Below are positions 11,981 to 32,066 of a DNA stretch of 64,000 bases, one piece after another (position 1 is the stretch's first letter; the number at the start of each line of letters is the position of its first letter). Made by a program: the position numbers and the translations under genes. The notes below the pieces were generated by a model, which was not told the origin of the DNA, made no database searches, and was given only the letters and a program-made list of their open reading frames with translations. The DNA is from Oscillospiraceae bacterium (GTDB taxonomy: Bacteria; Bacillota; Clostridia; Oscillospirales; CAG-272), in contig SVSB01000001.1 of the NCBI GenBank assembly GCA_015064505.1, forward strand, positions 56,826 to 120,825, written 5' to 3'.

Positions 11981-11998
11981 TTCACCACCTCCATGCCA

Positions 11999-12040
11999 AT
12001 TATATAACAATGCCATAACAAAGTCAACACATTTTGTTAT
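11999..12040 (-). promoter_or_regulatory. SigmaA promoter of the DeoR gene overlapped by TGTTAT boxes (candidate operator)
   Basis: Minus strand TTGACT-17-TATAAT; ATAACA at 12004 and 12015, inverted TGTTAT at 12035. Confidence 0.65.
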
Positions 12041-12057
12041 TTTAAAGGCAAAAAAAA

Positions 12058-12118
12058 CGGACGGCCAAGGCCGCCCCTACATTGTGCCGTGATCGTAGGG
12101 GCGAGCATCGCTCGTCCG
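12058..12118. repeat. Inverted pair of GTAG-type REP elements
   Basis: Reverse complement of GTAGGGGCGGCCTTGGCCGTCCG followed by GTAGGGGCGAGCATCGCTCGTCCG; each has an internal hairpin. Confidence 0.7.
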
Positions 12119-12127
12119 CCGTTTTTA

Positions 12128-15305: not shown

Positions 15306-15315
15306 ATTTTCCTCC

Positions 15316-16059: not shown

Positions 16060-16095
16060 ATCCGTTCTCCTTTTTATCCGTACTTTTATCCGTTT

Positions 16096-16965: not shown

Positions 16966-17065
16966 ATTTACCTCCGCAGTCGAATATCTTTTTTTAAATT
17001 TTAACACAGCAGAGGTCGGATGTAAAGTCCGTTTTTGTGCTAAAAGGTGGGGATTTTGAAAAAAC

Positions 17066-17100
17066 AAAAAGGCAAAAACCCTGAAGGCTTTTGCCTTTTT
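17066..17100 (-). terminator. Intrinsic terminator after the spore-coat gene
   Basis: AAAAAGGCAAAA...TTTTGCCTTTTT inverted repeat. Confidence 0.65.
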
Positions 17101-17110
17101 CATCAATCAG

Positions 17111-18625
17111 TCATCTTTTTAACGTCAGCGCCCGTACCCCTGCAAGGCTTTCCTCGGAATCGGGATCCTCGCAAAGCTCGGCGGAAAGTCCGTTCATGCG
17201 ACAAAGCTCCGCGGGAGATACCCCTCTGCGCTTTGCTATCTGCCACAGTGAATCACCCTTTTGGGGATACACGACCGAAACGCCGAACGGCGTTTTTTCA
17301 TCCTCTGAGGGTACGGTCTTAACGGAGCACACCGTGCTCTCCGTCGCCTTTTCCGTTATTATAACGGATACGGAAAGCTCTCCCTCGGCGCTGACGCTTC
17401 CCTTCTCCGTCTTTATTCTGACGGAGGAGAGAGTTCCGCTGAGGTTTCCGTAAAGTCTGCCGCCGCCCGAGGCCACGCCTTCAAGACGAACCCTGAAGGG
17501 CATCTCTATTTTTACGGGAGCGCATTCTCCGCCCTCTCCCTGCAGGATGCAATGCAGCACGGCGTTGCCGCGCACGGCAGCCCCCGAGCCGTCTCTTTCG
17601 GGATTTTCAAAGGCGACCTCCCACCATGGAGCGCACACCCGATCAAGTCCCGCTTCCTCGCCCGTAAGCACTCTGCTTCCGTTTACGGGAACGGTAACGC
17701 TGCCGCAGTCAACGCAGGAGGTAAGCTCCGTTTTGCTTTTTTCCGCAACGGAGGGAGCGCCGCATACGAAGGCGTCCCGTGCAAGAGCCACGGAAAAAGC
17801 CGCACAGCACTCCGCCTCAACCTCCGCCACGGCGCTTACCTCGCCTCCGTTCTCATCGCCCGTGTATTCACAGGACCAACAGGAGGCAATGGGGCGGCAC
17901 AGCCAGCTTTTATCCACGTCTCCGTCAAAGCGCCTTTCAAAGGGAATACGCTTTTCATAGGTAATAAGCCCACCGTCCTCGCAGGTAACTCTCGCCCAAA
18001 GCTCGCCGCGGCAATATACCTCGCCCTGCTCACAGTGCATCTCCGTTACGCTTACGGTGCCGTCGCAGGCAAGGGGTCTTCCCTGCACCTTTATATCTCC
18101 GCCGATCTCAAATTCTCCGCCGGTGATCCTTTTGCGAAGACATACGGGGGCAGTGCTGCGCAGTATCTCCGTAAGGGGAGGCGCATCACACGGGGGAACT
18201 GCGGAATCGGAAAGCATCTGCACGCGGCTTTTAAGCCTTGTGCGGAACTGAAGCCTGCGTGGAGCAAGGGGGCGGCACATAACGCTATCCGCCACCGTGT
18301 CCGCAAATACCGCGATCTCCCTGTCTCCGTTATTGCAAGGCACGGCAAACTCGTAATCGGAAGACAGAGAAACGCATCCCGTCTCCCCCTCCGTGCCTCT
18401 GTAAATAAGTCCGTAGACCACACTTCCCGCAAATTCCGCCCTGCCGCCGCCAACGTATTTTCCCGCAGGGAGCACCCTTGCGGTAACGCGCAGTATCTTT
18501 TTTATTTCCGGCTCGTATTCGGGCAAGGTAAACTCCTCGGAGATATCGCAAAATACCGCATCTCCGAAAAGATCCTCAGTAAACGTTCTTCCTTCAGACG
18601 GCACAGCGCTCTGTTTTTCTGCCAT
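17111..18625 (-). CDS. SPOCS (DUF3794) + C-terminal LysM spore coat morphogenetic protein (SipL/SpoVID-like)
   Basis: LPEYEPEIKKIL N-terminal motif; C-terminal LysM GDSLWQIAKR..SPAELCRMNGL. Confidence 0.78.
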   Translation of the reverse strand: MAEKQSAVPSEGRTFTEDLFGDAVFCDISEEFTLPEYEPEIKKILRVTARVLPAGKYVGGGRAEFAGSVVYGLIYRGTEGETGCVSLSSDYEFAVPCNNGDREIAVFADTVADSVMCRPLAPRRLQFRTRLKSRVQMLSDSAVPPCDAPPLTEILRSTAPVCLRKRITGGEFEIGGDIKVQGRPLACDGTVSVTEMHCEQGEVYCRGELWARVTCEDGGLITYEKRIPFERRFDGDVDKSWLCRPIASCWSCEYTGDENGGEVSAVAEVEAECCAAFSVALARDAFVCGAPSVAEKSKTELTSCVDCGSVTVPVNGSRVLTGEEAGLDRVCAPWWEVAFENPERDGSGAAVRGNAVLHCILQGEGGECAPVKIEMPFRVRLEGVASGGGRLYGNLSGTLSSVRIKTEKGSVSAEGELSVSVIITEKATESTVCSVKTVPSEDEKTPFGVSVVYPQKGDSLWQIAKRRGVSPAELCRMNGLSAELCEDPDSEESLAGVRALTLKR

Positions 18626-18690
18626 TTTTCCTCCTTTGGGGCAGGGATTATTATGCCTTTTGCGGCGCGCCGCTGCCCTTTATCCGCTAA

Positions 18691-18718
18691 AATATATGCT
18701 CCCGCAAAGAAAATTATC
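18691..18718 (-). promoter_or_regulatory. Putative sigmaE (mother-cell) promoter
   Basis: Minus strand gATA-16 nt-CATATATT upstream of a coat-assembly gene. Confidence 0.5.
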
Positions 18719-18945
18719 ACTCATCTTTCCCTTAAAATAATCTTTTATAAACATTCCCTAAAAATAAACCCGAAGCTTTTTTCGCCCCCCAAAAAGCTTT
18801 TACAAAAAATCCGCAGGCTTTTATAAAAAGCATCCCGATTTCAGCCTCTTTTTGCCTTATCGGCCCTTTATTTATCAAGGTTTTCCGCCTCATTTCTCTA
18901 AAATAAATATTCGCTTCCCGAAAGCACACCAAAGTAAAATAATTA

Positions 18946-18986
18946 TTGACATAAATGTATATTTGCGATAAAATGTATGTGTATAA
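18946..18986 (+). promoter_or_regulatory. SigmaA promoter of the catabolic operon with overlapping AAATGTAT repeats
   Basis: TTGACA-17-TAAAAT; AAATGTAT occurs in the spacer and again at the -10 box. Confidence 0.65.
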
Positions 18987-19045
18987 AATTCGCTAAAAAT
19001 AAACAAGAAATCAAAAAACGAAATCAATACAAAAGGAGAACACAA

Positions 19046-20080
19046 ATGAAAAAAGTAGTTACCTTTGGCGAGCTTATGCTCAGAATCACCCCTCCCGGCA
19101 GAGAGATGATCCTCCAGACCCCCAACATGGTATGCACCTTCGGCGGCGCAGAGGCTAACGTTGCCGTTGCCGTAAGCTCTTACGGTGACGAGGCAAGATA
19201 CGTTACCGCTCTTCCCGCAAACGACCTCGGCAGAGCTGCAATTAACGAGCTTCGCCGCTTCGGCGTTGATACCTCCGCCATCAAGCTGACGGACAAGCGC
19301 CTTGGTCTTTATTTCACCGAGACCGGCTCCAACATGCGCCCCTCCAAGGTCATCTACGACCGTGACAATACCGCTATTGCCGCAGTTAAGCCCGGCGACT
19401 TCGATTGGGATACCATTCTTGCAGACGCAGACTGGTTCCACGTTACCGGTATCACTCCCGCTCTTTCCGAGAGCCTTTGCGAGGCTACCCTTGAGGCACT
19501 GAAGAAGTGCAAGGAGAAGGGTATCACCGTTTCCTGCGACCTTAACTACCGCAAGAAGCTGTGGAAGTGGGGCAAGGAGCCCATTGAGGTTATGCCCGAG
19601 ATCGCAAAGTATATCGACGTTATGATCGCAAACGAGGAGGACTGCCAGAAGTGCCTCGGCATCGAGCTTGAGACCGGCGTTGACTCCGGCAAGCTTAACA
19701 CCGATATGTACAAGGATCTTGCAAAGATCGTTATGGATACCTACCCCAACGTTAAGGCACTTGCAGTAAGCCTCCGCGAGAGCATCAGCGCAGACCACAA
19801 CAACTGGTCCGGCGTTCTTGCCATCCGTGACGGCGGATTCTATCAGAGCCGCAAGTACAGCATCACCAACATCGTTGACCGTATCGGCGGCGGCGACAGC
19901 TTCGGCGGTTCTCTTATCTACGGCTTCCGCAACTTTGATAACGACTACCAGAAGATCATCGAGTACGCTATCGGCGGTTCCGCTCTCAAGCACACCGTAT
20001 ACGGCGACTACGTTCGCTTCACCAAGGAAGACGTTCTCAACCTCATCGCAGGCAGCGGCAACGGCCGTATCCAGAGATAA
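19046..20080 (+). CDS. kdgK: 2-keto-3-deoxygluconate kinase (PfkB family)
   Basis: FGELMLR, GGAEANVA, GITPALS, DLNYRKKLW, IVDRIGGGDSF; AAGGAG RBS. Confidence 0.85.
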   Translation: MKKVVTFGELMLRITPPGREMILQTPNMVCTFGGAEANVAVAVSSYGDEARYVTALPANDLGRAAINELRRFGVDTSAIKLTDKRLGLYFTETGSNMRPSKVIYDRDNTAIAAVKPGDFDWDTILADADWFHVTGITPALSESLCEATLEALKKCKEKGITVSCDLNYRKKLWKWGKEPIEVMPEIAKYIDVMIANEEDCQKCLGIELETGVDSGKLNTDMYKDLAKIVMDTYPNVKALAVSLRESISADHNNWSGVLAIRDGGFYQSRKYSITNIVDRIGGGDSFGGSLIYGFRNFDNDYQKIIEYAIGGSALKHTVYGDYVRFTKEDVLNLIAGSGNGRIQR

Positions 20081-20092
20081 GGAGCAACAAAA

Positions 20093-20755
20093 ATGGAAAT
20101 TCAGAGAATCAAAGTTATTGAGAATATGCACAAGAACGGTCTCGTAGGTATCGTACGCGATAACAACGAGGCTGACGCAATGACCCGTACCCGCGCTATC
20201 CGCGACGGTGGCTGCTCCATCCTTGAGATATCCATGAGCACCCCCGGTGCGCTCAACATCATCGAGACCGTTGCCAAGGAGATCAAGGAAAAGAATCTTG
20301 ATTCTTACGTTGGCGCAGGTACCGTTCTTGACGTTGAGACCGCACGTGCCTGCATCCTTGCGGGCGCAAGCTTCATCATCGCCCCCAACTTCAAGCCCGA
20401 GGTTGCTCTTCTCTGCAACCGTTACAGCGTTGTATACATGCCCGGCGTTCAGACTCTTACCGAGATCGTAAACGCTATGGAGTACGGCTGCGACGTGGTT
20501 AAGGCGTTCCCCGCTACCGCAGTTGGCGGCATCGGCTTCATCAAGGCAGTTATGGGTCCCCTTCCCCACGCCCGTCTGGTTCCCGTTGGCGGCGTAAATA
20601 TCAACAACATTCAGGATTGGTTCAACGACGGCGCATACGCCGTTGCTCTCGGCACCGGTCTTACCCACCCCACCAAGGGTACCTGCGACTACGAGGAGAT
20701 CAAGGCTCACACCGAGCGCGTAGTTGAGACCGTTAAGAACTGCAAGAGAAAATGA
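20093..20755 (+). CDS. eda: KDPG/KHG aldolase
   Basis: LEIS, VGAGTVLD, PG..T..EI, VKAFPA (Schiff-base Lys), PVGGV. Confidence 0.88.
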   Translation: MEIQRIKVIENMHKNGLVGIVRDNNEADAMTRTRAIRDGGCSILEISMSTPGALNIIETVAKEIKEKNLDSYVGAGTVLDVETARACILAGASFIIAPNFKPEVALLCNRYSVVYMPGVQTLTEIVNAMEYGCDVVKAFPATAVGGIGFIKAVMGPLPHARLVPVGGVNINNIQDWFNDGAYAVALGTGLTHPTKGTCDYEEIKAHTERVVETVKNCKRK

Positions 20756-21639
20756 GTGCGCGTTTTGAAAGGGTAAGCGGAGACGTTTACGTTCTCCGCG
20801 TCCCCTTCGGTTGCGTTTGGACGTCCGTTATTTTAGTGGGCGACAAAAAAGGCGATTGCGTTCTTATAGACTCCGCAAACTGCGGCGAGAGAGTGGACGA
20901 CACTCTCATCCCCGCCCTTTCGGAGCTGGGGCTTTCTTTGGAGGACGCAAAATACCTGCTTTGCACCCACACACACGGCGACCACGTGGGCGGACACAAG
21001 CGCATAAAGGAGCTTTCACCTAAGACTGCGGCTCTTTGCACCGAGGAGCAGCTTCCCAAGTTAAGGGATCCGTTGAAATACTCAAAGCTTATCCGTTCCG
21101 TATTTCCCGAGTACAGCCCCGAGGCACCCGCAGGACTTTGCGGCACCGAGCCCGACGGCATCCTGAAGGACGGAGAAACGGTACATAACAGGCTTAAGCT
21201 GATAAAGACCCCCGGACACGACAGCGACGCGGTATGCTTTTTCGATACCGTAACGAAGACCGTTATCTGCGGTGACAGCCTGCAGGCAAACGGCACGGAA
21301 AGTCAGGGCATCGGTCTTTATATGGAGCTTGCCCCCTACGAAAAGAGCATTGCGGACATTAAGGCGCTGGGCGCAACCAATCTTATTCTCAGCCACGGCT
21401 ACGACCCAATAGGCGATATCGCTCTCGGAGAAAAGGCCGTTGAGGACTGCATCGCGGTCTGCGAGAACGCAGTCAGCACTTACCACTCCGTGATCGAAAG
21501 ATGCGCAAGGGAGGGGCTGGATGCACCGGAGATCGCAAGGGTGCTTACCCGTGAGGTAAACGCGGTGCTTCCCGAATATCTGTTCCTTCCCCTCTACACG
21601 GTCACAGCCCATTTAAACGAGATAAAAAATAAATCATAA
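20752..21639 (+). CDS. Metallo-beta-lactamase-fold hydrolase (possible lactonase)
   Basis: LID, THTHGDHVGG, TPGH, GD, SHG; ATGA overlap with eda. Confidence 0.85.
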   Translation: MSARFERVSGDVYVLRVPFGCVWTSVILVGDKKGDCVLIDSANCGERVDDTLIPALSELGLSLEDAKYLLCTHTHGDHVGGHKRIKELSPKTAALCTEEQLPKLRDPLKYSKLIRSVFPEYSPEAPAGLCGTEPDGILKDGETVHNRLKLIKTPGHDSDAVCFFDTVTKTVICGDSLQANGTESQGIGLYMELAPYEKSIADIKALGATNLILSHGYDPIGDIALGEKAVEDCIAVCENAVSTYHSVIERCAREGLDAPEIARVLTREVNAVLPEYLFLPLYTVTAHLNEIKNKS

Positions 21640-21663
21640 AGTCAAACGACAAAAGGAGAAACC

Positions 21664-22545
21664 ATGAGTAAGAACGTTCTTATTACCGGCTCTTCCAACG
21701 GCATCGGCGCAGCCGCTGCCATCGCATTCGCAAAGGAAGGTTACAACGTTGGCGTAACCTACAACACCAATCCCGACGGCGCTATGAAGATCGCAGCTAA
21801 GTGCGAGAAGTACGGCGTTCAGACCATCGTCCTCGGCGGTAACGTAGGCGAGCACGACGTATGCAAGAAGATGATGGAGGACTTCCTTGCCAAGTTCGGC
21901 ACCATCGACGTGCTTATCAACAATGCAGGCGGCGCTCTCAAGATGCCTCTCGGCGGCTTTGAGAAGATGCCCATGGATTACTGGGATTCCCAGATCAATC
22001 TCAATCTCAACGCTGCAGCATACCTCTCCCACTACGCTATGATCAATATGATCGAGAACAAGATCGAGGGTGCTATTATCAACGTAAGCTCCGTTCACGG
22101 TACCATTCCGTGGGTAAGAAGAAAGACCCTTCCCTACGCAGCTGCAAAGGCAGGTCTTAACATGTTCACCAAGAACCTCGGTATCGAGGCTATCCACTAC
22201 GGCATCAACGTAAACGGTATCGCTCCCGGCTTTATCACCACCAAGGCTACCGACAGATACGACGAGTCCGATCTCCGCGACGGCTTCCTCCGCAAGATCC
22301 CCGCAGGCTTCCTTGGCAACGTAGACGACATCACCCCCATGATGCTCTTCCTTGCCGATAAGAGCAAGAGCCGCTTCATCGTTGGTCAGACCTTCGTTAT
22401 CGACGGCGGTCAGTCCGTTGACGGATGCATCGACAAGATGCTTGACGACGGCAACCCCGTCAACGCATACGATATCAAGCCCGACGTAAGCAAGGCTATC
22501 AAGCCCTCTCTTGAGGAGCTTGCAGAGATGACCCTCAACAAGTAA
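21664..22545 (+). CDS. SDR family oxidoreductase
   Basis: TGSSNGIG, NNAG, SS, YAAAK, PG, GQTFVIDGG. Confidence 0.92.
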   Translation: MSKNVLITGSSNGIGAAAAIAFAKEGYNVGVTYNTNPDGAMKIAAKCEKYGVQTIVLGGNVGEHDVCKKMMEDFLAKFGTIDVLINNAGGALKMPLGGFEKMPMDYWDSQINLNLNAAAYLSHYAMINMIENKIEGAIINVSSVHGTIPWVRRKTLPYAAAKAGLNMFTKNLGIEAIHYGINVNGIAPGFITTKATDRYDESDLRDGFLRKIPAGFLGNVDDITPMMLFLADKSKSRFIVGQTFVIDGGQSVDGCIDKMLDDGNPVNAYDIKPDVSKAIKPSLEELAEMTLNK

Positions 22546-22622
22546 GCTACCCCTCCGCCGATGGCGGTCAAAAAAATAAATAAATCAACATATTCATATT
22601 TCTAAAAGTGAGGTAAAAAACA

Positions 22623-24311
22623 ATGCTTAAGAAGAAAAAGTATGAAGACATGAGATCCTGCTGGGAGTTCGGCGAAGCTGAAGAGTGCCGCCGCGGCCTT
22701 ATGCTCGGTATGGGTTACACCGAGGAGGAGATCCACCGTCCCCTTATCGGTATCGTAAACTCCTGGAACGAGTACAACCCCGGCCACGTACACCTTGACA
22801 AGCTGGCTCAGAGAGTTAAGCAGGGCGTTCGCGAGGCAGGCGGTCTTCCCCTTGAGGTTATGACCACCGGTATCTGCGACGGTATGGTACTTAAGGATCC
22901 CAAGTACATAGAGGTTCCTTCCCGTAACTCCATTGCTGACCAGGTTGAGATCTCCGTTGAGGGTAACTTCTTCGACGCTATGGTTATGCTCTGCACCTGC
23001 GACTCCATCGTTCCCGGTTATCTGATGGCTGCTGCACGTCTTGACATTCCTACCATCATCGTTACCGGCGGTTATATGCCTCTCGGTATCAACCGCGGTA
23101 AGGAAGTTCTCCACATTCACGCACAGGATAAGGTTGGTACCGCTCAGAAGGGTCTTATGGACATGGACGAGTACAACGATCTTATCGCTCACAGCTGGGG
23201 CATCTGCGGCGGATGCACTTCCATGACCACCGCTAACTCCATGTGCATGATCGCCGAGGCTCTCGGTATGACTCTTCCCAACAACTCCTCCATGTGCGCT
23301 GCAGGCTCTGCTATCTACAAGTGCGCGTACGAGGCAGGTCTCCAGATCATGAACCTTCTCGACGAGGGCATCACTGCACGTCAGATCATGAGCGTTGAGG
23401 CTATCAAGAACGCTATCAAGCTTGATATGGCTGTTGCCGCTTCCTCCAACCTCATTCTCCACATCCCCGCTATCGCTCACGAGTGCGGCTACACCGATAT
23501 TCCTTGGTGGAAGTACTTCGACGAGGCTTCAAACGACATTCCTCTTCTCTCCCACCTCGCTCCCTCCGGTATGTACAACGTTAAGGACTTCGACATGGCA
23601 GGCGGTATGACTGCTATGCTCAAGAACCTCCTTCCCAAGCTGGACGGCAACGTTATGACTGTTACCGGTAAGACCCTTGCAGAGAACGTTAAGGATGCAA
23701 GAGTTTGGAACGACGACGTTATCCGCAGCCTTGACAACCCCGTTATGACCGAGCCCGGTATCGGCGTTCTCTACGGTTCTCTCGCACCCGAGGGAGCTAT
23801 CATCAAGATCGCCGCTGTTCCCCAGAACCTTATGACCGGATACAAGGGCAAGGCAAGAGTATTCGATAACCTTGACGATGCTCTTACCGCTCTCCGCACC
23901 GGCAAGATCAACGAGGGCGACGCTTGCGTTATCCGTTACCTCGGCCTTAAGGCTCGTTTCGGTACCACCGCATTCACCTTCCAGGAAGAGCTTAAGGGTC
24001 ATCCCGGTCTCTTCACCTCCTGCGCAGTTATTACCGACGGCCGCTTCTCCGGCGGTTCCTCCGGACTTTCCGTTGGTTACGTTTCTCCCGAGGCAGCTCT
24101 CGGCGGACCTCTCGGCATCGTAGAGGAAGGCGATATGATCGAGATCGACGTTCTCGGCAGAAGAATCGACCTCTGCATCTCCGAGGAGGAGAAGGCAGCT
24201 CGTCTTGCAAAGTTCCACTTCGAGTTCCCCGCAAACAACTACCCCAGATTCCTCAACCTGTTCGTAAAGAACGTAGGCTCCATGGCAGCCGGCGGTATTT
24301 GGGAAGTTTAA
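22623..24311 (+). CDS. IlvD/Edd family dihydroxy-acid (probably sugar-acid) dehydratase
   Basis: NPGHVHL, ICDG, CTCD, GGCTSMTTANSM, GSLAPEGA, ITDGRFSG, SPEAA. Confidence 0.9.
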   Translation: MLKKKKYEDMRSCWEFGEAEECRRGLMLGMGYTEEEIHRPLIGIVNSWNEYNPGHVHLDKLAQRVKQGVREAGGLPLEVMTTGICDGMVLKDPKYIEVPSRNSIADQVEISVEGNFFDAMVMLCTCDSIVPGYLMAAARLDIPTIIVTGGYMPLGINRGKEVLHIHAQDKVGTAQKGLMDMDEYNDLIAHSWGICGGCTSMTTANSMCMIAEALGMTLPNNSSMCAAGSAIYKCAYEAGLQIMNLLDEGITARQIMSVEAIKNAIKLDMAVAASSNLILHIPAIAHECGYTDIPWWKYFDEASNDIPLLSHLAPSGMYNVKDFDMAGGMTAMLKNLLPKLDGNVMTVTGKTLAENVKDARVWNDDVIRSLDNPVMTEPGIGVLYGSLAPEGAIIKIAAVPQNLMTGYKGKARVFDNLDDALTALRTGKINEGDACVIRYLGLKARFGTTAFTFQEELKGHPGLFTSCAVITDGRFSGGSSGLSVGYVSPEAALGGPLGIVEEGDMIEIDVLGRRIDLCISEEEKAARLAKFHFEFPANNYPRFLNLFVKNVGSMAAGGIWEV

Positions 24312-24315
24312 TAAA

Positions 24316-25959
24316 ATGCCGAAAAATATCAACATTCAAACTTTTGATGCGCTCGTCATCGGGTCCGGAATCTCCGGACTCGTGGCGGCGCGCCGCTTGG
24401 CTGAGACCAAGGGCCGCAGCATAGCCATTCTCGGCACGGGCGTCGGCGCTTCTCCCTACGTGCACGGCTTCAATATGCCCCTGCACCCGGAGGATTCCGT
24501 TGACCTCTTCCTCAAGGATACCCTCGTGAGCGGTCGCGGACAGTGCGACGTGCCTCTGGCTACCACTCTTTGCAGCAAGGCGCCCGAGCTTATTCCCGTT
24601 CTTAAGGAGCTTGGAATAGAGTTCGACCGCAATGCAGACGGCAGCTACTCTCTGCTCCGTCCTCTCGGCGCAAGCGTGCCCAGAGTTGCAAGTGCCGGCA
24701 ATCACACCGGTGTTGCGATCATGAACGCCATCAAGCGCGAGCTTGAGGCTAACCCCACAGTATACTTTATGGAAAACACCCGTGCTCTCCGTCTTCTCAA
24801 GAAGGACGACAGAGTTATCGGCGCAGTGGTTGCCGATTATACTAACGAAGTGTTCTCCGCTTACGTTGCCGACGTAGTAGTCCTTGCCTGCGGCGGCTTC
24901 TGCAATATTTATCCCTTCTCCACCAACTCCAAGGATATCGGAGGCGACGGCGTTGCAATGGCGTATTACGCGGGCGCAGAGCTTACCGATATGGAATTTA
25001 TTCAGTTTGAGCCCAGTGCCGCAGTTGCCCCCCAGGAGCTGCGCGGCAAGAGCGTTATCACCACCATGTATTTTGAGGGCGCAGTTCTCAAGAACGCAAA
25101 GGGCGAGCGCTTTATGCTGAATTATTCCGAGGATGCGGAATGCGTTAACAAGGACGTTCAGGCGCGTTGCATATTCCGCGAGATCGCGGAGGGCAGAGGC
25201 ACCGAAAACGGCGGAGTGTTCTTTGACGCTACGGGCGTTGGCAGAGAGAAGCTTGACACTCTCTACCCCTCCTACGTTAAGCGCTACGCGGACGTGGGCA
25301 TAGATATTGCCACCACCCCCTTTGAGATAGCACCCGCTCCCCACACCTCTCTCGGCGGCGTTGTTATAAACAGCGATTGCTCCGTAAAGGGGCTTCGCGG
25401 TCTTTACGCCTGCGGCGAGGCTGTCGGCGGAATCCACGGCGCCAACCGCGTCGGCGGTAACGCGGGTCTTGAGATACTCGTATTCGGTAATATCGCAGGA
25501 GAAAGCGCCTGCGAGTTTTTGAATGACAACGCACAGGACGCATACGTGCCCTGCATGGATCAGGCAAACGCCATCGTGAACCGCGAGGGTATCCCTCCCG
25601 TTCCCGGCAGAGCTGACGCCATCCGCGCAGAGCTCGGCAAGATCCTTTCCGAGGACCTGAACGTGCTCCGTAACGGTGCGGCTATCGAAAAGGCGATCGC
25701 AAAGCTGAACGAGCTTCTTCTGGAGGTTCGCGGTCTTACCACCGCTATTCCCTTCTTCGGCATCGTAAAGCTTCTCCGTCTGGAGAACGATCTCATTGCC
25801 GCTCTGGCACTTGCTCATTCCGCATATCTGCGCAACGAAAGCTGCGGCTGTCACGTGCGTACCGACTGCCCCGATGCGGATCCCGAATCCGCGAAGTACC
25901 GCACCGTCGTATCCTGCGGCGAGGACGGCACCATGAAGGCAGATCGCAAAAACATCTAA
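24316..25959 (+). CDS. FAD-dependent oxidoreductase, L-aspartate oxidase/SdhA flavoprotein family
   Basis: GSGISG, LACGG, GDG, DMEFIQFEP, HTSLGG, GEAVGGIHGANRVGGN, ESCGCHVRTD. Confidence 0.88.
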   Translation: MPKNINIQTFDALVIGSGISGLVAARRLAETKGRSIAILGTGVGASPYVHGFNMPLHPEDSVDLFLKDTLVSGRGQCDVPLATTLCSKAPELIPVLKELGIEFDRNADGSYSLLRPLGASVPRVASAGNHTGVAIMNAIKRELEANPTVYFMENTRALRLLKKDDRVIGAVVADYTNEVFSAYVADVVVLACGGFCNIYPFSTNSKDIGGDGVAMAYYAGAELTDMEFIQFEPSAAVAPQELRGKSVITTMYFEGAVLKNAKGERFMLNYSEDAECVNKDVQARCIFREIAEGRGTENGGVFFDATGVGREKLDTLYPSYVKRYADVGIDIATTPFEIAPAPHTSLGGVVINSDCSVKGLRGLYACGEAVGGIHGANRVGGNAGLEILVFGNIAGESACEFLNDNAQDAYVPCMDQANAIVNREGIPPVPGRADAIRAELGKILSEDLNVLRNGAAIEKAIAKLNELLLEVRGLTTAIPFFGIVKLLRLENDLIAALALAHSAYLRNESCGCHVRTDCPDADPESAKYRTVVSCGEDGTMKADRKNI

Positions 25960-25978
25960 TTCAAACAAGAGGAACGAT

Positions 25979-27517
25979 ATGAAAAAGATTCAACTTAAGA
26001 AAAACCGTTACGTTGACTCCGTTTCCCTTATGGGTATCGGCGACAAGGTAACGGCTCTCGGAGGCATTGAAAACTCCGAGGTTGCAATGTGCACCCCCGC
26101 AAATATCGAGGTTCTTGTTGAGCTGGGTTACACCATCCCCGAGGATGCAACTCCCAACGACCTTATCCTTGCCTGCACCGCAGACACCGAGGAGAAGCTG
26201 GCAGAGGCATTCCAGCTGATGATGGATATCATCGACCACAAGAACGTCGGCGAAGAGGGCGCAAACGTATATAAGTCCCTTTCCGAGATCGACCTCCGCG
26301 AGGACGGCTACGATCTCGCCCAGATCTCTCTCCCCGGCGAGTACGCTGCAGCTGAGGCTAAGCGCGCACTTGCCATGGGTCTTGACGTATTCATCTTCTC
26401 CGATAACGTAAGCCTTGAGGAGGAGCTTGAGGTCAAGCAGTTCGGCGCAGAGCGCGGCCGCCTCGTTATGGGCCCCGACTGCGGCGTTGGTCTTATCAAG
26501 GGAGTTGCGCTTGCCGCAGGCTCCATCGTTCGTCCCGGCCCCGTAGGCATCGTAGCCGCTTCCGGCTCCGGCGCTCAGGAGGTTGCCTGCCTCGTTGAAA
26601 AATGCGGTCTCGGCGTTTCCTCCATCATCGGTACCGGCGGACACGACCTTCTTCCCCAGATCGGCGGTATCACTATGCTTGCAGGCATGAAGCGCCTGGA
26701 GGCTGATCCCGATACTCAGGTTATCGTGCTTGTTTCCAAGCTTGCTGACCTTACCGTTATGGCAAAGATCTTAAACGAGGCAGACAACCTCCGCAAGCCC
26801 GTTGTTGCCATGTTCCTTGGCAGTGACGAGAGCCTCTTTGCAGGTCACAAGGTTCACGCAACCTTCACTCTCCAGGATGCGGCTACCAAGGCAGTAGAGC
26901 TTGCCACCGGCAAGGCTACCACCCTCGGCTTTACCGACAAGGAGATCGAAGAGATCGTTGCCCGCGAGATCAAGAAGTACGGTCCCGAGCAGAAGTACGT
27001 TCGCGGACTCTTCTCCGGCGGTACCTTCACCGAGGAAGGCATGATCTACTACACCCAGAACAACAAGGGCGTTAAGCTCTACTCCAACCTTAAGACCAAG
27101 TACGCAGAGCAGATCCCCGACCACGACGTAAGCGTTGGTCACTGCATTCTTGACCTTGGTGCAGAGGACTTCACCGCTGAGGCTCCTCACCCCATCTTTG
27201 ATCCCGCCCTCAAGCTGAAGCGCCTGAAGAAGGAGCTTGCTGATCCCAGCGTTGCAGTAGTAACCATGGACTTCATCGCAGGCCCCGGCGTTCACCTTGA
27301 TCCCGTTCGTCCCTTTGCAGAGGCTTGCAAGGCAATTCTTGAGGAGAGAAAGGGTGCCATCACCTTTATCGCAAACATTTGCGGCTCTCTCGAGGATCCC
27401 CAGGACGTTCCCGCCTGCGAGAATATGCTCCGCGATGCAGGCGTTATCGTAACCGCAAGCAACTACCAGAGCACCAAGCTTGCAAGCGCTCTTATGAATG
27501 CGCTTGAGAACAGATAA
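25979..27517 (+). CDS. fdrA: FdrA-like protein (succinyl-CoA-synthetase-alpha-like; AllF-type)
   Basis: YVDSVSLM, FIFSDNV, LVMGPDCG, GIVAASGSG, GTGG, LVSK, GLFSGGT, DLG...PHP..DP. Confidence 0.88.
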   Translation: MKKIQLKKNRYVDSVSLMGIGDKVTALGGIENSEVAMCTPANIEVLVELGYTIPEDATPNDLILACTADTEEKLAEAFQLMMDIIDHKNVGEEGANVYKSLSEIDLREDGYDLAQISLPGEYAAAEAKRALAMGLDVFIFSDNVSLEEELEVKQFGAERGRLVMGPDCGVGLIKGVALAAGSIVRPGPVGIVAASGSGAQEVACLVEKCGLGVSSIIGTGGHDLLPQIGGITMLAGMKRLEADPDTQVIVLVSKLADLTVMAKILNEADNLRKPVVAMFLGSDESLFAGHKVHATFTLQDAATKAVELATGKATTLGFTDKEIEEIVAREIKKYGPEQKYVRGLFSGGTFTEEGMIYYTQNNKGVKLYSNLKTKYAEQIPDHDVSVGHCILDLGAEDFTAEAPHPIFDPALKLKRLKKELADPSVAVVTMDFIAGPGVHLDPVRPFAEACKAILEERKGAITFIANICGSLEDPQDVPACENMLRDAGVIVTASNYQSTKLASALMNALENR

Positions 27518-27530
27518 GGGGGACAGAACA

Positions 27531-28955
27531 ATGGCAGAAAAGAATTATTCAAGCGATCTTCGCGTTATAAATGTGGGCCTTCAGTTCTTCTACGATTCTC
27601 TCGTATCCCAGAACGTAAAGGCAACTCAGCTCCAGTGGCGTCCTCCCTTCAAGGTCAATGCAGAGGTTGCAAACGCTCAGGCGGCAATCAGCTCTCCCGA
27701 CCTTAAGGCAAAGATCGACGCGGCAAACGAGACCGCAGTTAACTACGTTATCAACTCTCAGCCCTACTGGGTAGACGTTAAGCCCGCAGGCGAGGTAGTT
27801 GAGGGTCTTGACGATTACACCATCATCCACTCCGGTCCTCCCATCGAGCACGAGGACATGGTTATGCTTCACCGCCGCGGACTCGTTTCCGCCTGCCTCT
27901 TTGAGGGTTGGGCAAAGAACGAGGAAGAGGCTATGAAGCTTATTACAAGCGGCAAGATCAAGCTTCTCTCCGCTCTTGACACCAACACCGTTGGTGCAGG
28001 TACCGGTATTATTACCAAGAGCGTTGCAATGATCGTTACCGAGGATCGCGCAACCGGTAAGATCGCCGCTACCTTCCCCGCAGAGGGTCCCAACCAGGGC
28101 GGATTCTGCGGTTGGGGTCTTTACAGCCAGGAAATCGCAGATTACCTCCGCTATATGCGCGAGGAGCTTCTCCCCGTAATGGCTATCGTTGCAAAGAACA
28201 TGGGCGGTCTTGCTACCAAGCCCATTCTTGCAGAGGCTATGCAGATGGGTGACGAGAACCATACCCGTCAGACCGCTGCAGACCTTCTCTTCGATAAGAA
28301 GGTTCTTCCCGAGCTCTTCAAGCTCGATATGCCCAAGGAGCAGATCATGAAGGTTCTCGACTACATCGTTGAGACTCCTCGCTTCTTCCACTGCTTCGGT
28401 CAGGGCGCAAGCCGTGCGGCTATGCTCTCCGCAGTTGGCACTCCTTACTCCACCATGGTTACCGCTATCTGCGGAAACGGCGTTGAGTTCGGTATTAAGG
28501 TTGCAGGCCTCGGCGACGAGTGGTTCTGCGCTCCCGCACCTATGATGAAGGGTAAATACACCTCCTCCTCCTTCAAGGAAAGCGATCAGCTTCCCTGGAT
28601 CGGTGACAGCTGCGTAGTTGAGTGCGCAGGTATGGGCGGTATCGCCGCAGGTGCTTCCCCCATCGTATGCAACCTCCGCGGTCTTAAGCTGAAGGATGCT
28701 ATCGGCATCTCCCGCGAGATGGAGCAGATCTGTATCGCCCGCAACTACAACTTCCCCATTCCTAACCTTGATTTCGACTTCCTCCCCGTAGGTATCGATA
28801 TCCGTAAGGTTCTGGAAACCGGCATCTGCCCCGAGATCCACGGCGGTATGTTCAACTACACCGGCGGTCTTATGGGCGCAGGCTCCGCGCGCGTTCCTAT
28901 GCTCTGCTTTGAGAAGGCAATGAAGCGCTTCGCAGAGAAGTACGGCAACGCTTAA
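27531..28955 (+). CDS. ylbE: DUF1116 (YlbE/AllG/YahG-like) protein with fused N-terminal INVGL..WRPP segment
   Basis: HSGPP, FEGWA, MGDENHTR, GNGVEFGI, GDS, GIDIRKVLETGICP. Confidence 0.85.
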   Translation: MAEKNYSSDLRVINVGLQFFYDSLVSQNVKATQLQWRPPFKVNAEVANAQAAISSPDLKAKIDAANETAVNYVINSQPYWVDVKPAGEVVEGLDDYTIIHSGPPIEHEDMVMLHRRGLVSACLFEGWAKNEEEAMKLITSGKIKLLSALDTNTVGAGTGIITKSVAMIVTEDRATGKIAATFPAEGPNQGGFCGWGLYSQEIADYLRYMREELLPVMAIVAKNMGGLATKPILAEAMQMGDENHTRQTAADLLFDKKVLPELFKLDMPKEQIMKVLDYIVETPRFFHCFGQGASRAAMLSAVGTPYSTMVTAICGNGVEFGIKVAGLGDEWFCAPAPMMKGKYTSSSFKESDQLPWIGDSCVVECAGMGGIAAGASPIVCNLRGLKLKDAIGISREMEQICIARNYNFPIPNLDFDFLPVGIDIRKVLETGICPEIHGGMFNYTGGLMGAGSARVPMLCFEKAMKRFAEKYGNA

Positions 28956-28967
28956 GCTCCATAAATA

Positions 28968-29009
28968 ATTGCCCCGTCCTGCCCCTCAAAAGGAGCGAGG
29001 CGGGGCAAT
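28968..29009 (+). other. Intercistronic stem-loop between the DUF1116 and kinase genes
   Basis: ATTGCCCCG...CGGGGCAAT with no U-tract. Confidence 0.55.
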
Positions 29010-29027
29010 ATCTTAAAAGAGGAAAAA

Positions 29028-30212
29028 ATGAAAGAAATTCGCAACGTAATAGTTCTGAACCTTGGCTCCACCAGCTTTAAGTTCAAGCTTTTTGATTTTG
29101 CAAATAACGAAAAGGTGCTTGCAACGGGCGAGATAGAAAATATCGGCACCGCAGGCGGCGCATACAGCATCTCCACGGGAGATAACACCGTCAAGGGTGC
29201 TTGCGATTGCAAGGTACACGGCGACGCCTTTGCCCTTCTTATGGACGCGCTTACAGGGGCGGGCATCTTAAAAGGTCTTGACGAGCTTGACGCAGTAGGC
29301 TACAAGGCAGTTCACTGCGGCGCCCTTAAGGGTGCACAGCTCGTAAACGACGAGCTTATCGCAAAGCAGGAGAAGTTCATCTCCTTTGCTCCCGCTCACA
29401 ACCCCATCTACATCAATATGATGAAGCAGGTATCCGAGCGTTGGCCCGATCTTAAGCAGGTGGCTTATTTTGAAACCAGCTTCCACGCAACCATTCCCGA
29501 CGAGCGCGTAATATACGGCGTTCCCGTGGAATGGAAGGACGAGATGGGCGTGCGCCGCTACGGCTTCCACGGCTCCTCCCACAGCTACATCGGTATGAAG
29601 ATGCAGGAGCTGGAGCCCGAAGCTACGAAGGTAGTATCCGTACACCTTGGCGGCTCCTCCTCCATCTGCGCTATCAAGAACGGAGAAAGCGTTGCTTCCT
29701 CCATGGGCGCAACTCCCCAAAGCGGTCTGTTCCATAACAACCGCGTGGGCGATTTCGACGTATTCTGCATTCCCGAGCTTGTAAACAAGTACGGCGATCT
29801 TGATACGGTAATGAAGAAGCTTTCCAAGGAAAGCGGCTTTTTGGGTGTCAGCGGTGTTTCCAACGACCTGCGCGACGTTATCGCCGCCGCAGAGGACGGA
29901 AACAAGAACGCACAGCTGGCTATCGACGCATTCGTTGATAATATCGTAGGATACATCGGTATGTTCTCCGCATATATGGAGGGTCTTGACGGAATCGCCT
30001 TCACGGGCGGTATCGGTCAGCACAGCCACAAGGTACGCACCGCGGTGCTGAAGCGCCTCGCTTGGCTTGGCGTTGAGCTGAACGATGCGGAGCTTGAGCG
30101 CAGCTCCGACGGAAAGATCACCACGGATAACAGCAAGGTTGCCGTTTACGTCCTCAAAACCAACGAGGAGCTTATGGTAGCTCGCAAGACCGTTGAATTC
30201 CTTTCCAAGTAA
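29028..30212 (+). CDS. ackA: Acetate/propionate kinase family enzyme (divergent active site)
   Basis: NLGSTSFK, PAHNP, RRYGFHGSSH, HLGG, FTGGIG, TNEELMVA. Confidence 0.88.
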   Translation: MKEIRNVIVLNLGSTSFKFKLFDFANNEKVLATGEIENIGTAGGAYSISTGDNTVKGACDCKVHGDAFALLMDALTGAGILKGLDELDAVGYKAVHCGALKGAQLVNDELIAKQEKFISFAPAHNPIYINMMKQVSERWPDLKQVAYFETSFHATIPDERVIYGVPVEWKDEMGVRRYGFHGSSHSYIGMKMQELEPEATKVVSVHLGGSSSICAIKNGESVASSMGATPQSGLFHNNRVGDFDVFCIPELVNKYGDLDTVMKKLSKESGFLGVSGVSNDLRDVIAAAEDGNKNAQLAIDAFVDNIVGYIGMFSAYMEGLDGIAFTGGIGQHSHKVRTAVLKRLAWLGVELNDAELERSSDGKITTDNSKVAVYVLKTNEELMVARKTVEFLSK

Positions 30213-30217
30213 TTATG

Positions 30218-30255
30218 AAAAAGCTCCCGCAGACTCGGTCTGCGGGAGCTTTTTT
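30218..30255. terminator. Bidirectional intrinsic terminator
   Basis: AAAAAGCTCCCGCAGAC-tcg-GTCTGCGGGAGCTTTTTT between convergent genes. Confidence 0.88.
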
Positions 30256-30285
30256 ACTTCGAGTCTGTCATCAACTCACTGCCGT

Positions 30286-31422
30286 TCAAAAATCATTCCT
30301 GAACTCAATGCTTCTCCAGGCGATATTTCCGTCCTTCAGGGTCATACGGGGAGCAAGGAAATAGGAAGCGTCTATGCGGTGGCGTCTGCCGTCAAAGAGC
30401 ACGCCGCCGTCGTTTTTTACCTCAAATACCGCAATATCGGCTCTCTCTCCCACCTTCAGTCTGCCGCCCGTGAAGCCCAAAATATCTGCGGCGCCGGAGG
30501 TTGCGCGGCGAAGGACCTCCCCCTCGTCCATACCGAGAGAAACAAGCTTTGAAAGGGTCATCGGCAAAGCAAAGGTACCGCTGAAGAACACGCCCTTATC
30601 CGTAACGTCGCCGCCGATAATATCGGGCAAGAAGCCCTCTGCAAGAGCGATCTTGAAAACCTCAAAATCAAAATGGAAGCAAGCGTCTCCCACGTCGAAT
30701 ATCACTCCCCGCTCACGGGCCTCCAGAATACGGCGATCTATCCTATCCCCGTCAATTACGGTATTCCCCCTGCCCTGATAGGTGTGGGTGAAAATATCTC
30801 CCTCGCCCATCATTTCAGCAAGCTCACCCGCGGGAAAATCGGGGTCTGAAACGTGGGTGCAAAGAGGCACGCCGAGGCCGTGAGCAAGATCAAGGGCGGC
30901 GGCAAGAGGTGCTTTGCCGTAATGACGGGAGCATTCCTTGCCCATTCTTATTTTAAGACCGCACAGCTTGTCGGGATATTTTTCAAACATACGTTCTATT
31001 TTTTTCTTATCGAATTTTTCCGGGTCTATATCCTCCGGATAGGAGCGCAGGCTGTTAAGCCCGTAGGAGCAGACGTTCATAAAAAGCCGCGTTTCCACGG
31101 GGGCGGTGTACATTGCGTGCGCAACGGAATCAACGGTGTTACAGCCAACGCTTCCCGCGTCAAGAGCGGCGGTAACGCCGAAGGGCAGGCAGGCAAGCTT
31201 TGGGTCAACTCCGATGCCCGCGTATGGCGCAAGATGGGCGTGAGCGTCAATAAGACCCGGAGTAACGGTCATACCCGTGCAGTCTATCTTAAAATCGGCA
31301 TTATAGTCCTCAATCCCGCCGATTGCGGCAATTTTACCGCCGTAAACGGCAATATCGGTGCCGCCTTCAATAAACCTTTCACCGTCAAAAAGACGGCAGT
31401 TCTTTAAAATAACGTCGTACAT
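30286..31422 (-). CDS. Amidohydrolase/deacetylase (dihydroorotase-like, EF_0837/COG3964 type)
   Basis: PGLIDAHAH, DAGSVG, GLKIR, THV, GDIFTH, RGVIFDVG, ADIAVF. Confidence 0.85.
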   Translation of the reverse strand: MYDVILKNCRLFDGERFIEGGTDIAVYGGKIAAIGGIEDYNADFKIDCTGMTVTPGLIDAHAHLAPYAGIGVDPKLACLPFGVTAALDAGSVGCNTVDSVAHAMYTAPVETRLFMNVCSYGLNSLRSYPEDIDPEKFDKKKIERMFEKYPDKLCGLKIRMGKECSRHYGKAPLAAALDLAHGLGVPLCTHVSDPDFPAGELAEMMGEGDIFTHTYQGRGNTVIDGDRIDRRILEARERGVIFDVGDACFHFDFEVFKIALAEGFLPDIIGGDVTDKGVFFSGTFALPMTLSKLVSLGMDEGEVLRRATSGAADILGFTGGRLKVGERADIAVFEVKNDGGVLFDGRRHRIDASYFLAPRMTLKDGNIAWRSIEFRNDF

Positions 31423-31502
31423 AACAGACCTCACAAAATGCTTGCATAATATTCAAAACAATGCTACAATATTATAAAAGGAAGAAAAAACGAGGAGCGT
31501 CT

Positions 31503-32066
31503 ATGAAAAACGATCTTTCCGCATACCGTTGGCACAGAAACGGTATCACCCTGCGCCCCCAGACAAACGCCGACTGGGTGCACTTTTTCAATAACTATTT
31601 TGACAGCGAAAGGCGCTTCAATTTTTATTCCGAGGCAGAGGGTCCCGAATGCGAGCGTTCCGCAGAGGAGCGATTTGCCACGTTCCTTGCGAAGTCCAGG
31701 GAGAAAGGCAATATGGACCTTGCGGCAGAGGATGCGGAAGGAAACGTTGTAGGCTCTCTCGATCTTTACGCGGTAGACAAGCGCCACGGCACGTTCCAGA
31801 TCGCCGTTGCGGTCTGTGACGGGCACACGGGCAAGGGATATGCAAAAACCATGATGAGCATACTCCTTGACTACTGCTTCGGCGAGCTTCGCCTTAATAA
31901 GCTGAACGCCCGCGTAATGGAGGGCAACGAAGCTTCAAAAAGATTGCATCTTTCTCTGGGCTGCAAGGAAGAAGGCGTGCACAGAGAGATGTACTTCCAC
32001 GGCGGAAGATATATAGACGAATATTTCTACGGTCTTACGAAAGCAGATTGGGAACAGAGAAAATAA
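31503..32066 (+). CDS. GNAT N-acetyltransferase (RimJ/RimL type)
   Basis: GKGYAK, YCFGELRLNKL, NEAS, LGCKEEG..RE. Confidence 0.85.
   Translation: MKNDLSAYRWHRNGITLRPQTNADWVHFFNNYFDSERRFNFYSEAEGPECERSAEERFATFLAKSREKGNMDLAAEDAEGNVVGSLDLYAVDKRHGTFQIAVAVCDGHTGKGYAKTMMSILLDYCFGELRLNKLNARVMEGNEASKRLHLSLGCKEEGVHREMYFHGGRYIDEYFYGLTKADWEQRK

Follow-up and report, generated by a model that had tools for sequence, protein, structure and literature searches.

A conserved operon joining a sugar-acid route to an AllFGH-like complex and an altered acetate-kinase-family protein: possible acyl phosphate formation in the sugar catabolism of anaerobic bacteria

Introduction

The purified AllFGH complex of Escherichia coli, an oxamate carbamoyltransferase (OXTCase), interconverts oxalurate plus phosphate and oxamate plus carbamoyl phosphate; it requires Mg2+ but neither CoA nor a nucleotide, and full activity depends on all three genes (PMC11326118). 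The present study deals with an operon of nine genes in which relatives of two of these subunits, FdrA (AllF) and AllG (DUF1116), are joined to sugar-acid genes, to a flavoprotein and to a kinase of the acetate kinase family. It lies in a stretch of 64,000 nucleotides, hereafter the window, from an Oscillospiraceae bacterium (GenBank assembly GCA_015064505.1, contig SVSB01000001.1, positions 56,826 to 120,825 of the forward strand). All of its proteins belong to known families, and three of them fail the residue or context tests that define the characterised members.

The locus resembles the AllFGH/AllK system in the use of the same three protein families, in a kinase gene standing beside them, and in a proposed phosphorolysis to an energy-rich phosphate from which ATP is then formed. 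It differs from that system in its kinase, which belongs to the ASKHA-type acetate kinase family and not to the amino-acid-kinase family, in the low identity of the subunits (27-34%), in the presence of sugar-acid genes and a dedicated flavoprotein, in an unlinked AllH and in the absence of allantoin genes. The substrate of the operon is almost certainly not oxalurate.

Other described pathways share parts of the gene set. The semi-phosphorylative Entner-Doudoroff (ED)/De Ley-Doudoroff pathway likewise uses an SDR, a lactonase, an IlvD/Edd dehydratase, a 2-keto-3-deoxygluconate or -galactonate (KDG/KDGal) kinase and a KDPG(al) aldolase, but it offers no role for the flavoprotein, FdrA, AllG, AllH and the AckA-like kinase, which make five extra conserved proteins. 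The Pta-AckA and PduL-PduW systems also deliver an acyl phosphate to an enzyme of the acetate kinase family for ATP synthesis; unlike them, the cluster contains no phosphotransacylase or source of acyl-CoA, and its kinase is altered at R91, D148 and N211. Pentose 'route III' is one of the non-phosphorylative diketo-hydrolase routes. Those for L-fucose and L-rhamnose employ an aldose dehydrogenase, a lactonase, a dehydratase, a 2-keto-3-deoxy-acid 4-dehydrogenase and a 2,4-diketo-acid hydrolase (PMC11199699). The pathway proposed here would run in the same manner from aldose through lactone, aldonate, 2-keto-3-deoxy acid and 2,4-diketo acid to pyruvate and a hydroxy acid. The diketo-hydrolase routes rely on an SDR 4-dehydrogenase and a FAH-family hydrolase and waste the energy of the C-C cleavage, whereas the present locus has a Frd/NadB-type flavoprotein and an OXTCase-like complex with a kinase in their place, and its conserved neighbours showed no FAH hydrolase.

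Results

Conservation of the gene combination

An earlier note on this DNA, referred to below as the original prediction, had seen here an undescribed catabolic operon. The operon proved to be conserved, and a literature search, with most subscription journals outside its scope, yielded no description of the gene combination, of DUF1116/DUF2877 together with an acetate kinase, or of the phosphorolytic cleavage of an acylpyruvate. The genome analysed comprises 2.46 Mb in 72 contigs and is 88.7% complete. Gene identities were taken from the listing of open reading frames (ORFs) and from Pfam and NCBIfam profile scans.

For the survey one genome per species was scanned and 133 AllG loci were confirmed, the counts being made on the best 80. 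These 80 represent one AllG clade, and are kin and not independent samples; the ORF-based counts miss the kinase of L030 and a few SDR and MBL genes that tblastn finds. AllG was recorded in 79 loci, FdrA in 77, the flavoprotein in 67 (three cut by contig ends), IlvD in 61, the AckA-like kinase in 60, SDR in 56, MBL in 52, eda and AllH/DUF2877 in 43 each and kdgK in 42. A well-flanked subset of 55, in which the sequence extends 7 kb or more upstream and 3 kb or more downstream of AllG, contained FdrA 55 times, IlvD and the flavoprotein 50 times each, MBL and SDR 47 times each, the kinase 45 times, and AllH, eda and kdgK 37 times each.

The original prediction hung on the recurrence of the combination in other genomes, and the complete seven-gene core is indeed present in 37 of the 80 loci, across three phyla; the core together with eda and kdgK was found in 18, and FdrA, AllG, kinase and AllH together in 41. 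The prevailing order is MBL-SDR-IlvD-flavoprotein-FdrA-AllG-kinase-AllH. The carriers include Oscillospiraceae, Lachnospiraceae, Erysipelotrichaceae, Christensenellaceae and Selenomonadaceae (Anaerovibrio), as well as Verrucomicrobiota and Lentisphaerota; Opitutales, Verrucomicrobiaceae, Victivallales and relatives of Eisenbergiella, Hungatella and Tyzzerella are among those named.

Among the well-flanked loci IlvD and the flavoprotein occurred both in 50 and neither in 5, with no discordant case, while SDR and MBL were both present in 45, both missing in 6 and discordant in 4. Presence and absence thus define four modules, namely SDR-MBL, IlvD-flavoprotein, FdrA-AllG-AllH-kinase and Eda-KdgK.

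Of 400 scored genomes sampled evenly from the class, 17 had an AllG match, and 19 loci were taken from these. Fourteen of these were classical, with E. coli AllG as the nearest relative, and five were of the sugar type. The classical loci contained no AckA-like kinase of the operon type, no flavoprotein and no IlvD; carbamate kinase was present in two and AllC in three. The Pfam AllG model gave 190-227 bits for the sugar type versus 255-355 bits for classical copies of the same class, and by sequence the AllG of the operon does not group with the classical ones.

Three of the five sugar-type loci form a deep clade (L140-L142, in genomes G177, G412 and G150) which keeps the same gene set at identities to the window of 40-42% for AllG, 34-36% for the flavoprotein and 55-56% for IlvD. 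Its gene order is Amidohydro_2, flavoprotein, AllH, FdrA, AllG, kinase, IlvD, eda and SDR, so that AllH stands ahead of FdrA, and there is no PfkB kinase within the locus. Two aldose 1-epimerases, a LacI-type regulator and a sugar ABC transporter lie beside these clusters. L141 additionally carries an enolase-superfamily dehydratase and a second SDR. The gene combination is old and widespread.

The AllFGH-like complex

All three OXTCase subunit families are encoded in the genome, FdrA and AllG in the operon and AllH in trans, each with homology over the full length to its E. coli counterpart. FdrA is 32% identical to AllF, contains CoA-binding and CoA-ligase domains and matches the solved structure 3dmy. 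AllG is 34% identical to E. coli AllG and has homologues of 65-85% identity across phyla; because the closest of them has 474 aa, the true start of AllG may lie about 11 codons downstream. An AllG orthologue of the same genus (L008, G006:C58:4380-5834) contains one in-frame TGA, explicable by a sequencing error, by pseudogene formation or by recoding. A classical-type AllG match in another genome (L109, G269:C3:96950-97594) lies inside an open frame of 1013 aa with an AllF-like match adjacent (L129), which suggests an FdrA-AllG fusion.

The sole AllH copy of the genome (PF11392, 88.6 bits) is 27% identical to E. coli AllH and is located on another contig, C51, directly downstream of dpaA/dpaB (AllH, L004:7312-8136; DpaA_N and Flavoprotein domains, region L004:4824-8136), in sporulation surroundings that have no relation to the sugar operon. 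The region L004:8288-14941 beside it encodes a protein of 2217 aa with SLH domains and Listeria-Bacteroides repeats. The YlbF/DUF2877 subunit had been reported as absent; this holds for the operon but not for the system, the gene being present on C51 and, in 43 of the 80 loci, inside the cluster after the kinase, as confirmed by Pfam.

Among 61 relatives AllG was found in nine and AllH in nine, both in eight, neither in 51 and each alone in one; the two exceptional genomes are 69% and 82% complete, and the hits come from no more than two genera. In a quick maximum-likelihood tree built from 67 AllH sequences, the trans copies fell on a split with 98% SH-aLRT support, on a side that also holds 20 cluster-encoded AllH copies and no classical AllH. 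AllH, here encoded in trans, is part of the system. G460 (L146/L152) and G461 (L145/L151), which belong to the clade with clusters ending at AllG (L018-L031), contain a two-gene unit of kinase and AllH apart from an FdrA-AllG pair that lacks both partners. For AllG residues 60-485 with the trans AllH, a complex prediction made without controls scored 0.25 and 0.01 (mark 0.32) and is taken neither for nor against a contact. Longer AllH proteins that might represent fusions were sought and not found, which is weak evidence.

No protein of the genome exceeded the TIGR00746 cut-off for carbamate kinase (34.7 versus 358 bits), and tblastn with E. coli AllK and AllC against the 88.7%-complete genome gave no match; no allantoin gene was found beside AllH or, with these queries, in the genome. 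The reported lack of carbamate kinase therefore stands for this assembly, and the possibility that oxalurate is split with parts encoded elsewhere holds for AllH but finds neither a carbamate kinase nor an allantoin gene.

The AckA-like kinase

The kinase exceeds the family threshold, with 343.3 bits for TIGR00016 (cut-off 293.4) and 339 bits for PF00871, and its best solved relative is deposited as a probable propionate kinase. In acetate kinase R91, D148 and N211 have catalytic or substrate-binding roles and L122 belongs to the pocket (residues are numbered here after the aligned enzyme of Methanosarcina thermophila). All 58 cluster kinases and the copy of the window carry K at R91, E at D148, G at N211 and A, V or T at L122, whereas a second AckA of the same genome, 38% identical, keeps R, D, N and L and is canonical; the same contrast between kinase copies was seen in G460 and G461. 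The sequence thus defines the operon kinase as a distinct subfamily and not as an ordinary acetate kinase, and for this reason acetyl phosphate is unlikely to be its substrate. The change of L122 to A, which would enlarge the pocket, and the changed polar residues would fit a hydroxylated acyl group; candidates are glycolyl from pentoses, lactyl from 6-deoxyhexoses and glyceroyl from hexoses.

It had been noted that FdrA/DUF1116 is accompanied by an ackA-like gene and not by arcC, and this was confirmed by the survey, in which the AckA-like kinase occurred in 60 of the 80 loci and carbamate kinase in none. Given this tie to a gene of the acetate kinase family, a role in converting an acyl phosphate into ATP is the natural reading.

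The flavoprotein

E121, H244, T259/E260, R290, H351 and R386 are active-site residues of NadB (E. coli numbering, read off the alignment). The flavoprotein of the operon has P116 for E121, E232 for H244, I248/T249 for T259/E260 and K279 for R290, and keeps H351 (H343) and R386 (R378). E232, K279, H343 and R378 are invariant in all 69 orthologues, those of the deep clade included. The protein falls under all cut-offs of the NCBIfam models for NadB, Frd and TfrA, and an ESM Atlas search retrieved only generic FAD-binding, L-aspartate oxidase and TfrA names. It is, by its sequence, a distinct subfamily without the residues that define NadB and fumarate reductase, and the replacement of E121, H244 and R290 leaves the proposal of a NadB-like amine oxidase without support. 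In the well-flanked loci it pairs strictly with the dehydratase and not with the aldolase.

Genes of the upper sugar-acid route

By homology, the complete semi-phosphorylative set of aldose dehydrogenase, lactonase, aldonate dehydratase, kinase and aldolase appears to be present. The kdgK product gave 111.8 bits with PF00294, the NCBIfam KDG/KDGal kinase models being the best, all under their cut-offs, and that of eda gave 138 bits with PF01081 and 166.7 bits with TIGR01182 (cut-off 156). The SDR, whose best solved relatives include glucose 1-dehydrogenases, is probably an aldose 1-dehydrogenase, and the MBL-fold protein is probably a sugar lactonase; both genes are missing together in L091 and L092. 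The IlvD/Edd dehydratase has dihydroxy-acid and L-arabinonate dehydratases as its nearest solved relatives and is 55-94% identical across clusters. A second IlvD elsewhere in the genome, 40% identical to it, is presumably the biosynthetic copy.

Two exchanges of genes between clusters fit the lactonase and kinase roles assigned here. An Amidohydro_2 protein, of a family that includes sugar lactonases, takes the position of the MBL gene in the deep clade, and a DgoK-type 2-keto-3-deoxygalactonate kinase (PF05035) follows eda at L139:11319-12251 in place of the PfkB kinase. In L139 the interval from the flavoprotein to AllG yielded no FdrA.

Accessory genes and the substrate

Aldose 1-epimerases and LacI-type regulators were each found in 16 loci. 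Further accessory genes code for ROK, AraC and IclR regulators, CUT1 and CUT2 sugar ABC transporters, GH43 and the glycoside-hydrolase-like DUF5696. The accessory genes point to neutral aldoses and not to N-acyl amino sugars; this conclusion draws on the aldose 1-epimerases, GH43 and sugar ABC transporters together with the lactonase and KDGal-kinase exchanges, and the aldose possibly has galactose or arabinose configuration. The N-acylated amino sugar of the original prediction does not agree with these neighbours. Its EF_0837-type amidohydrolase was likewise not borne out as a part of the system, with no match in the 80 loci at survey thresholds and a single one, L078, at looser thresholds. 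Since this gene is nearly absent from the loci, it provides no evidence for an N-acyl substrate. Oxaloacetate (by way of carboxyphosphate), 2,3-diketogulonate, glucarate-type dicarboxylates and inositol were also considered as substrates and dropped for want of a supporting neighbour.

EtfB, EtfA and a GlcD-type FAD oxidase stand beside four to six loci, including L033, L050, L063 and L091. Such a trio is typical of lactate or glycolate oxidation, and it may mark oxidation of the acid product. Minimal clusters also exist: L036 and L054 contain a CUT2 ABC transporter with FdrA-AllG-kinase-AllH and eda/kdgK, and L080 and L083 contain IclR and a TRAP transporter with FdrA-AllG-kinase-AllH.

Layout and surroundings of the operon

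The nine genes, all on the + strand, are separated by gaps of -20 to 77 bp (Table 1), and all ten genes listed were confirmed at their places. The arrangement with one promoter and one terminator described earlier was upheld by ORFs, profiles, the promoter-like site and the hairpin beyond the kinase gene. The latter, a GC-rich structure of 19 bp between A and T runs, was recognised on inspection and folding of the sequence (-35.2 kcal/mol, z -6.61; none of 200 shuffles equally stable); it is not listed by a consensus terminator scan. The divergent gene upstream encodes a SipL/LysM sporulation protein, and the host is therefore a spore-forming member of Bacillota.

Table 1. Positions of the operon genes and adjoining elements in the window
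Feature	Position	Strand	Basis
Promoter-like site, sigma-70-type, TTGACA-17-TAAAAT	18946-18974	+	11/12 matches, best within 18600-31600
PfkB-family KDG/KDGal-type kinase (kdgK)	19046-20080	+	ATG preceded by GGAGA
KDPG/KHG aldolase (eda)	20093-20755	+	PF01081, TIGR01182
MBL-fold hydrolase, probable sugar lactonase	20752-21639	+	PF00753
SDR dehydrogenase, probable aldose 1-dehydrogenase	21664-22545	+	Pfam/NCBIfam
IlvD/Edd-family sugar-acid dehydratase, dedicated paralogue	22623-24311	+	Pfam/NCBIfam
FAD_binding_2/Succ_DH_flav_C flavoprotein, distinct subfamily of the Frd/Sdh/NadB superfamily	24316-25959	+	Pfam/NCBIfam
FdrA/AllF-like subunit	25979-27517	+	Pfam/NCBIfam
AllG/DUF1116-like subunit	27498-28955	+	PF06545, 221.8 bits
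AckA-family kinase, distinct subfamily ('AckX')	29028-30212	+	PF00871, TIGR00016
Bidirectional intrinsic terminator, common to the operon and the convergent gene	30216-30255	.	Folding
Convergent EF_0837/PRK12394-type amidohydrolase	30286-31434	-	Below curated cut-offs

The stretch occurs in public runs labelled gut metagenome (several of them bovine or sheep), in one feces metagenome and in one anaerobic digester. Contigs from metatranscriptome libraries, which can contain DNA, cover the operon, and those of run X4 bridge the kdgK/eda/MBL, MBL/SDR, flavoprotein/FdrA and FdrA/AllG junctions; this indicates presence in RNA libraries and does not prove a single transcript. The positions 18500-18936 and 30736-31172 had no cover, and the uncovered parts prove nothing. 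A sharp depth peak in the kinase gene (29425-29861) was observed in three RNA-library runs, with 114, 48 and 30 versus low single figures elsewhere; it probably stems from conserved kinase sequence of other organisms.

Genes on the - strand at 11243-17106 of the window encode a DeoR regulator, DUF218, two GFO/IDH/MocA oxidoreductases and two xylose-isomerase-like TIM-barrel proteins, and form a second putative sugar or cyclitol catabolic cluster. They are not conserved beside the FdrA clusters, single matches having been found only in L042 and L069.

Discussion

The observations can be brought together in a model in which an oxidative aldose route is joined to a phosphorolytic diketo-acid branch that feeds ATP synthesis by the kinase; a probability of about 0.4 is assigned to this model as a whole. 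Judged by family homology and context, the SDR would oxidise an aldose to the lactone with the help of a mutarotase, the MBL-fold lactonase would open the lactone to the aldonate, and the IlvD/Edd paralogue would dehydrate the aldonate to a 2-keto-3-deoxy acid; on the same grounds, acids that can be phosphorylated at C6 would be converted by KdgK and Eda into pyruvate and glyceraldehyde 3-phosphate. By analogy, the flavoprotein would remove two hydrogens across C3-C4 to give the enol of a 2,4-diketo acid (acylpyruvate), which FdrA/AllG, the trans-encoded AllH and phosphate might then convert into pyruvate and a hydroxyacyl phosphate (glycolyl, lactyl or glyceroyl phosphate). The AckA-like kinase would finally form ATP from this acyl phosphate and ADP.

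The analogy with AllFGH extends to each part. An acylpyruvate (R-CO-CH2-CO-COO-) corresponds to oxalurate (H2N-CO-NH-CO-COO-) with CH2 for NH and R for NH2, pyruvate corresponds to oxamate, the acyl phosphate to carbamoyl phosphate, and the AckA-like kinase to carbamate kinase. Oxamate is a classic analogue of pyruvate, as carbamoyl phosphate is of acetyl phosphate. An estimate from textbook values indicates that cleavage of a beta-diketone yields enough energy for an acyl phosphate, whereas that of a plain amide does not; thermodynamics disfavours the conversion of such an amide and phosphate into an acyl phosphate. That FdrA/AllG/AllH form a non-carbamoyl acyl phosphate in sugar catabolism, which the new kinase then uses, appears reasonably probable. 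The more specific proposal of an 'acylpyruvate phosphorylase', which would carry out the C-C phosphorolysis of a sugar-derived 2,4-diketo acid and supply the acyl phosphate for ATP formation by the new branch of the acetate kinase family, is offered tentatively.

Several points weigh against this model. The KdgK/Eda and flavoprotein/FdrA branches would compete for the same kind of intermediate, which would be explicable only by two substrates or branches, and by simple bookkeeping each of them yields about 1 ATP per hexose, with no evident energetic gain for hexoses. It is tempting to speculate that a promiscuous upper pathway serves both branches, with a hexose (galactose, for instance) passing to KdgK/Eda and a pentose or deoxy sugar (arabinose, for instance) entering phosphorolysis. 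For the flavoprotein, FdrA/AllG/AllH and the kinase alike, the substrates named are inferences. The operon shows no evident electron-acceptor partner for the flavoprotein, and we know of no Frd/NadB-type flavoprotein that oxidises C4 of a sugar acid. The kinase is missing inside the locus in the Verrucomicrobiota and in one Oscillospiraceae-like clade. In five well-flanked loci FdrA-AllG-kinase-AllH are accompanied only by a transporter, with or without KdgK/Eda, and three genomes with minimal clusters gave no flavoprotein homologue with the window protein as query; in such clusters the substrate must have another origin.

The acyl phosphate could be formed by another route, in which a glycolaldehyde or lactaldehyde released by the aldolase is oxidised by the flavoprotein on FdrA/AllG/AllH, or in which FdrA, through its CoA-binding fold, serves as a phosphotransacylase for an acyl-CoA; the kinase would form ATP in either case. 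The CoA-binding and CoA-ligase domains of FdrA, the retention of the aldolase in the clusters and the probable propionate kinase as best solved relative of the kinase speak for such a route, which is nevertheless considered unlikely: the conserved neighbours include neither a CoA-acylating aldehyde dehydrogenase nor a CoA-transferase, the flavoprotein is tied to the dehydratase and not to the aldolase, and in the presence of KdgK the aldolase would release glyceraldehyde 3-phosphate, for which such a module is superfluous. E. coli AllFGH is moreover active without CoA, and its reaction is reversible and was assayed in the condensing direction (PMC11326118). This reversibility would also permit an ATP-consuming operation, with the kinase activating a carboxylate and FdrA/AllG/AllH transferring the acyl group to an acceptor in biosynthesis or salvage. 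The surroundings of the operon are catabolic (glycoside hydrolases, transporters, an aldolase and sugar-responsive regulators) and no conserved biosynthetic neighbours were found, so that this direction has little probability.

The original prediction, in which FdrA/AllG phosphorolyse the N-acyl group of an amino sugar acid to an acyl phosphate for ATP synthesis, taken here with the flavoprotein as an amine oxidase and the amidohydrolase as part of the pathway, is rated as slightly less probable still. It agrees with the place of the kinase within the acetate kinase family, with the adjacent EF_0837-type amidohydrolase of the window and with the linkage of KdgK/Eda to FdrA-AllG-kinase-AllH even in L036 and L054, which would fit KDG as the deacylated product; a chemically kinder variant would let the dehydratase make an enamide or N-acylimine that is cleaved to acyl phosphate, KDG and ammonia. 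Against it stand the amidohydrolase, lacking in all 80 loci at survey thresholds and matched only by L078 at looser ones, conserved neighbours among which amino-sugar genes were not seen and which instead comprise aldose epimerases, GH43 and neutral-sugar transporters, a flavoprotein deprived of E121, which binds the amino group in NadB, and of H244 and R290, a non-canonical kinase in a genome that has a canonical acetate kinase, and the uphill phosphorolysis of a plain amide. An ordinary OXTCase, in which FdrA/AllG and the trans AllH split oxalurate, the AckA-like protein serves as the carbamate kinase and the sugar genes are mere neighbours, is the least credible of all and very improbable. 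The genome does encode all three subunit families, the Pfam models for AllG and AllH are exceeded, and carbamoyl phosphate and acetyl phosphate are look-alikes; the identities to E. coli AllF, AllG and AllH are only 32%, 34% and 27%, however, and neither carbamate kinase nor an AllC homologue was found in the genome. Moreover, classical AllG loci (14 of the 19) form a separate, higher-scoring group without the AckA-like kinase, flavoprotein and IlvD, while the sugar genes are conserved with FdrA/AllG in three phyla and in the deep clade.

Three uncharacterised subfamilies, an OXTCase-like complex, a kinase altered in catalytic residues and a flavoprotein altered in its active site, are locked to a sugar-acid route in many abundant anaerobes of the gut, the rumen and digesters, from three phyla. 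Few substrate-level phosphorylation reactions are known from fermenting organisms, and there is a realistic chance that the operon encodes a new energy-conserving reaction. If the proposed phosphorolytic pathway is true, it would represent a previously unknown kind of substrate-level phosphorylation and add an energy-conserving reaction to the list. Gut and rumen anaerobes would possess an oxidative sugar pathway which yields ATP without ATP investment, and the way in which oxidative ('non-phosphorylative') sugar pathways in anaerobes are judged would change. Much of the DUF1116/DUF2877/FdrA family would then gain a function beyond allantoin catabolism.

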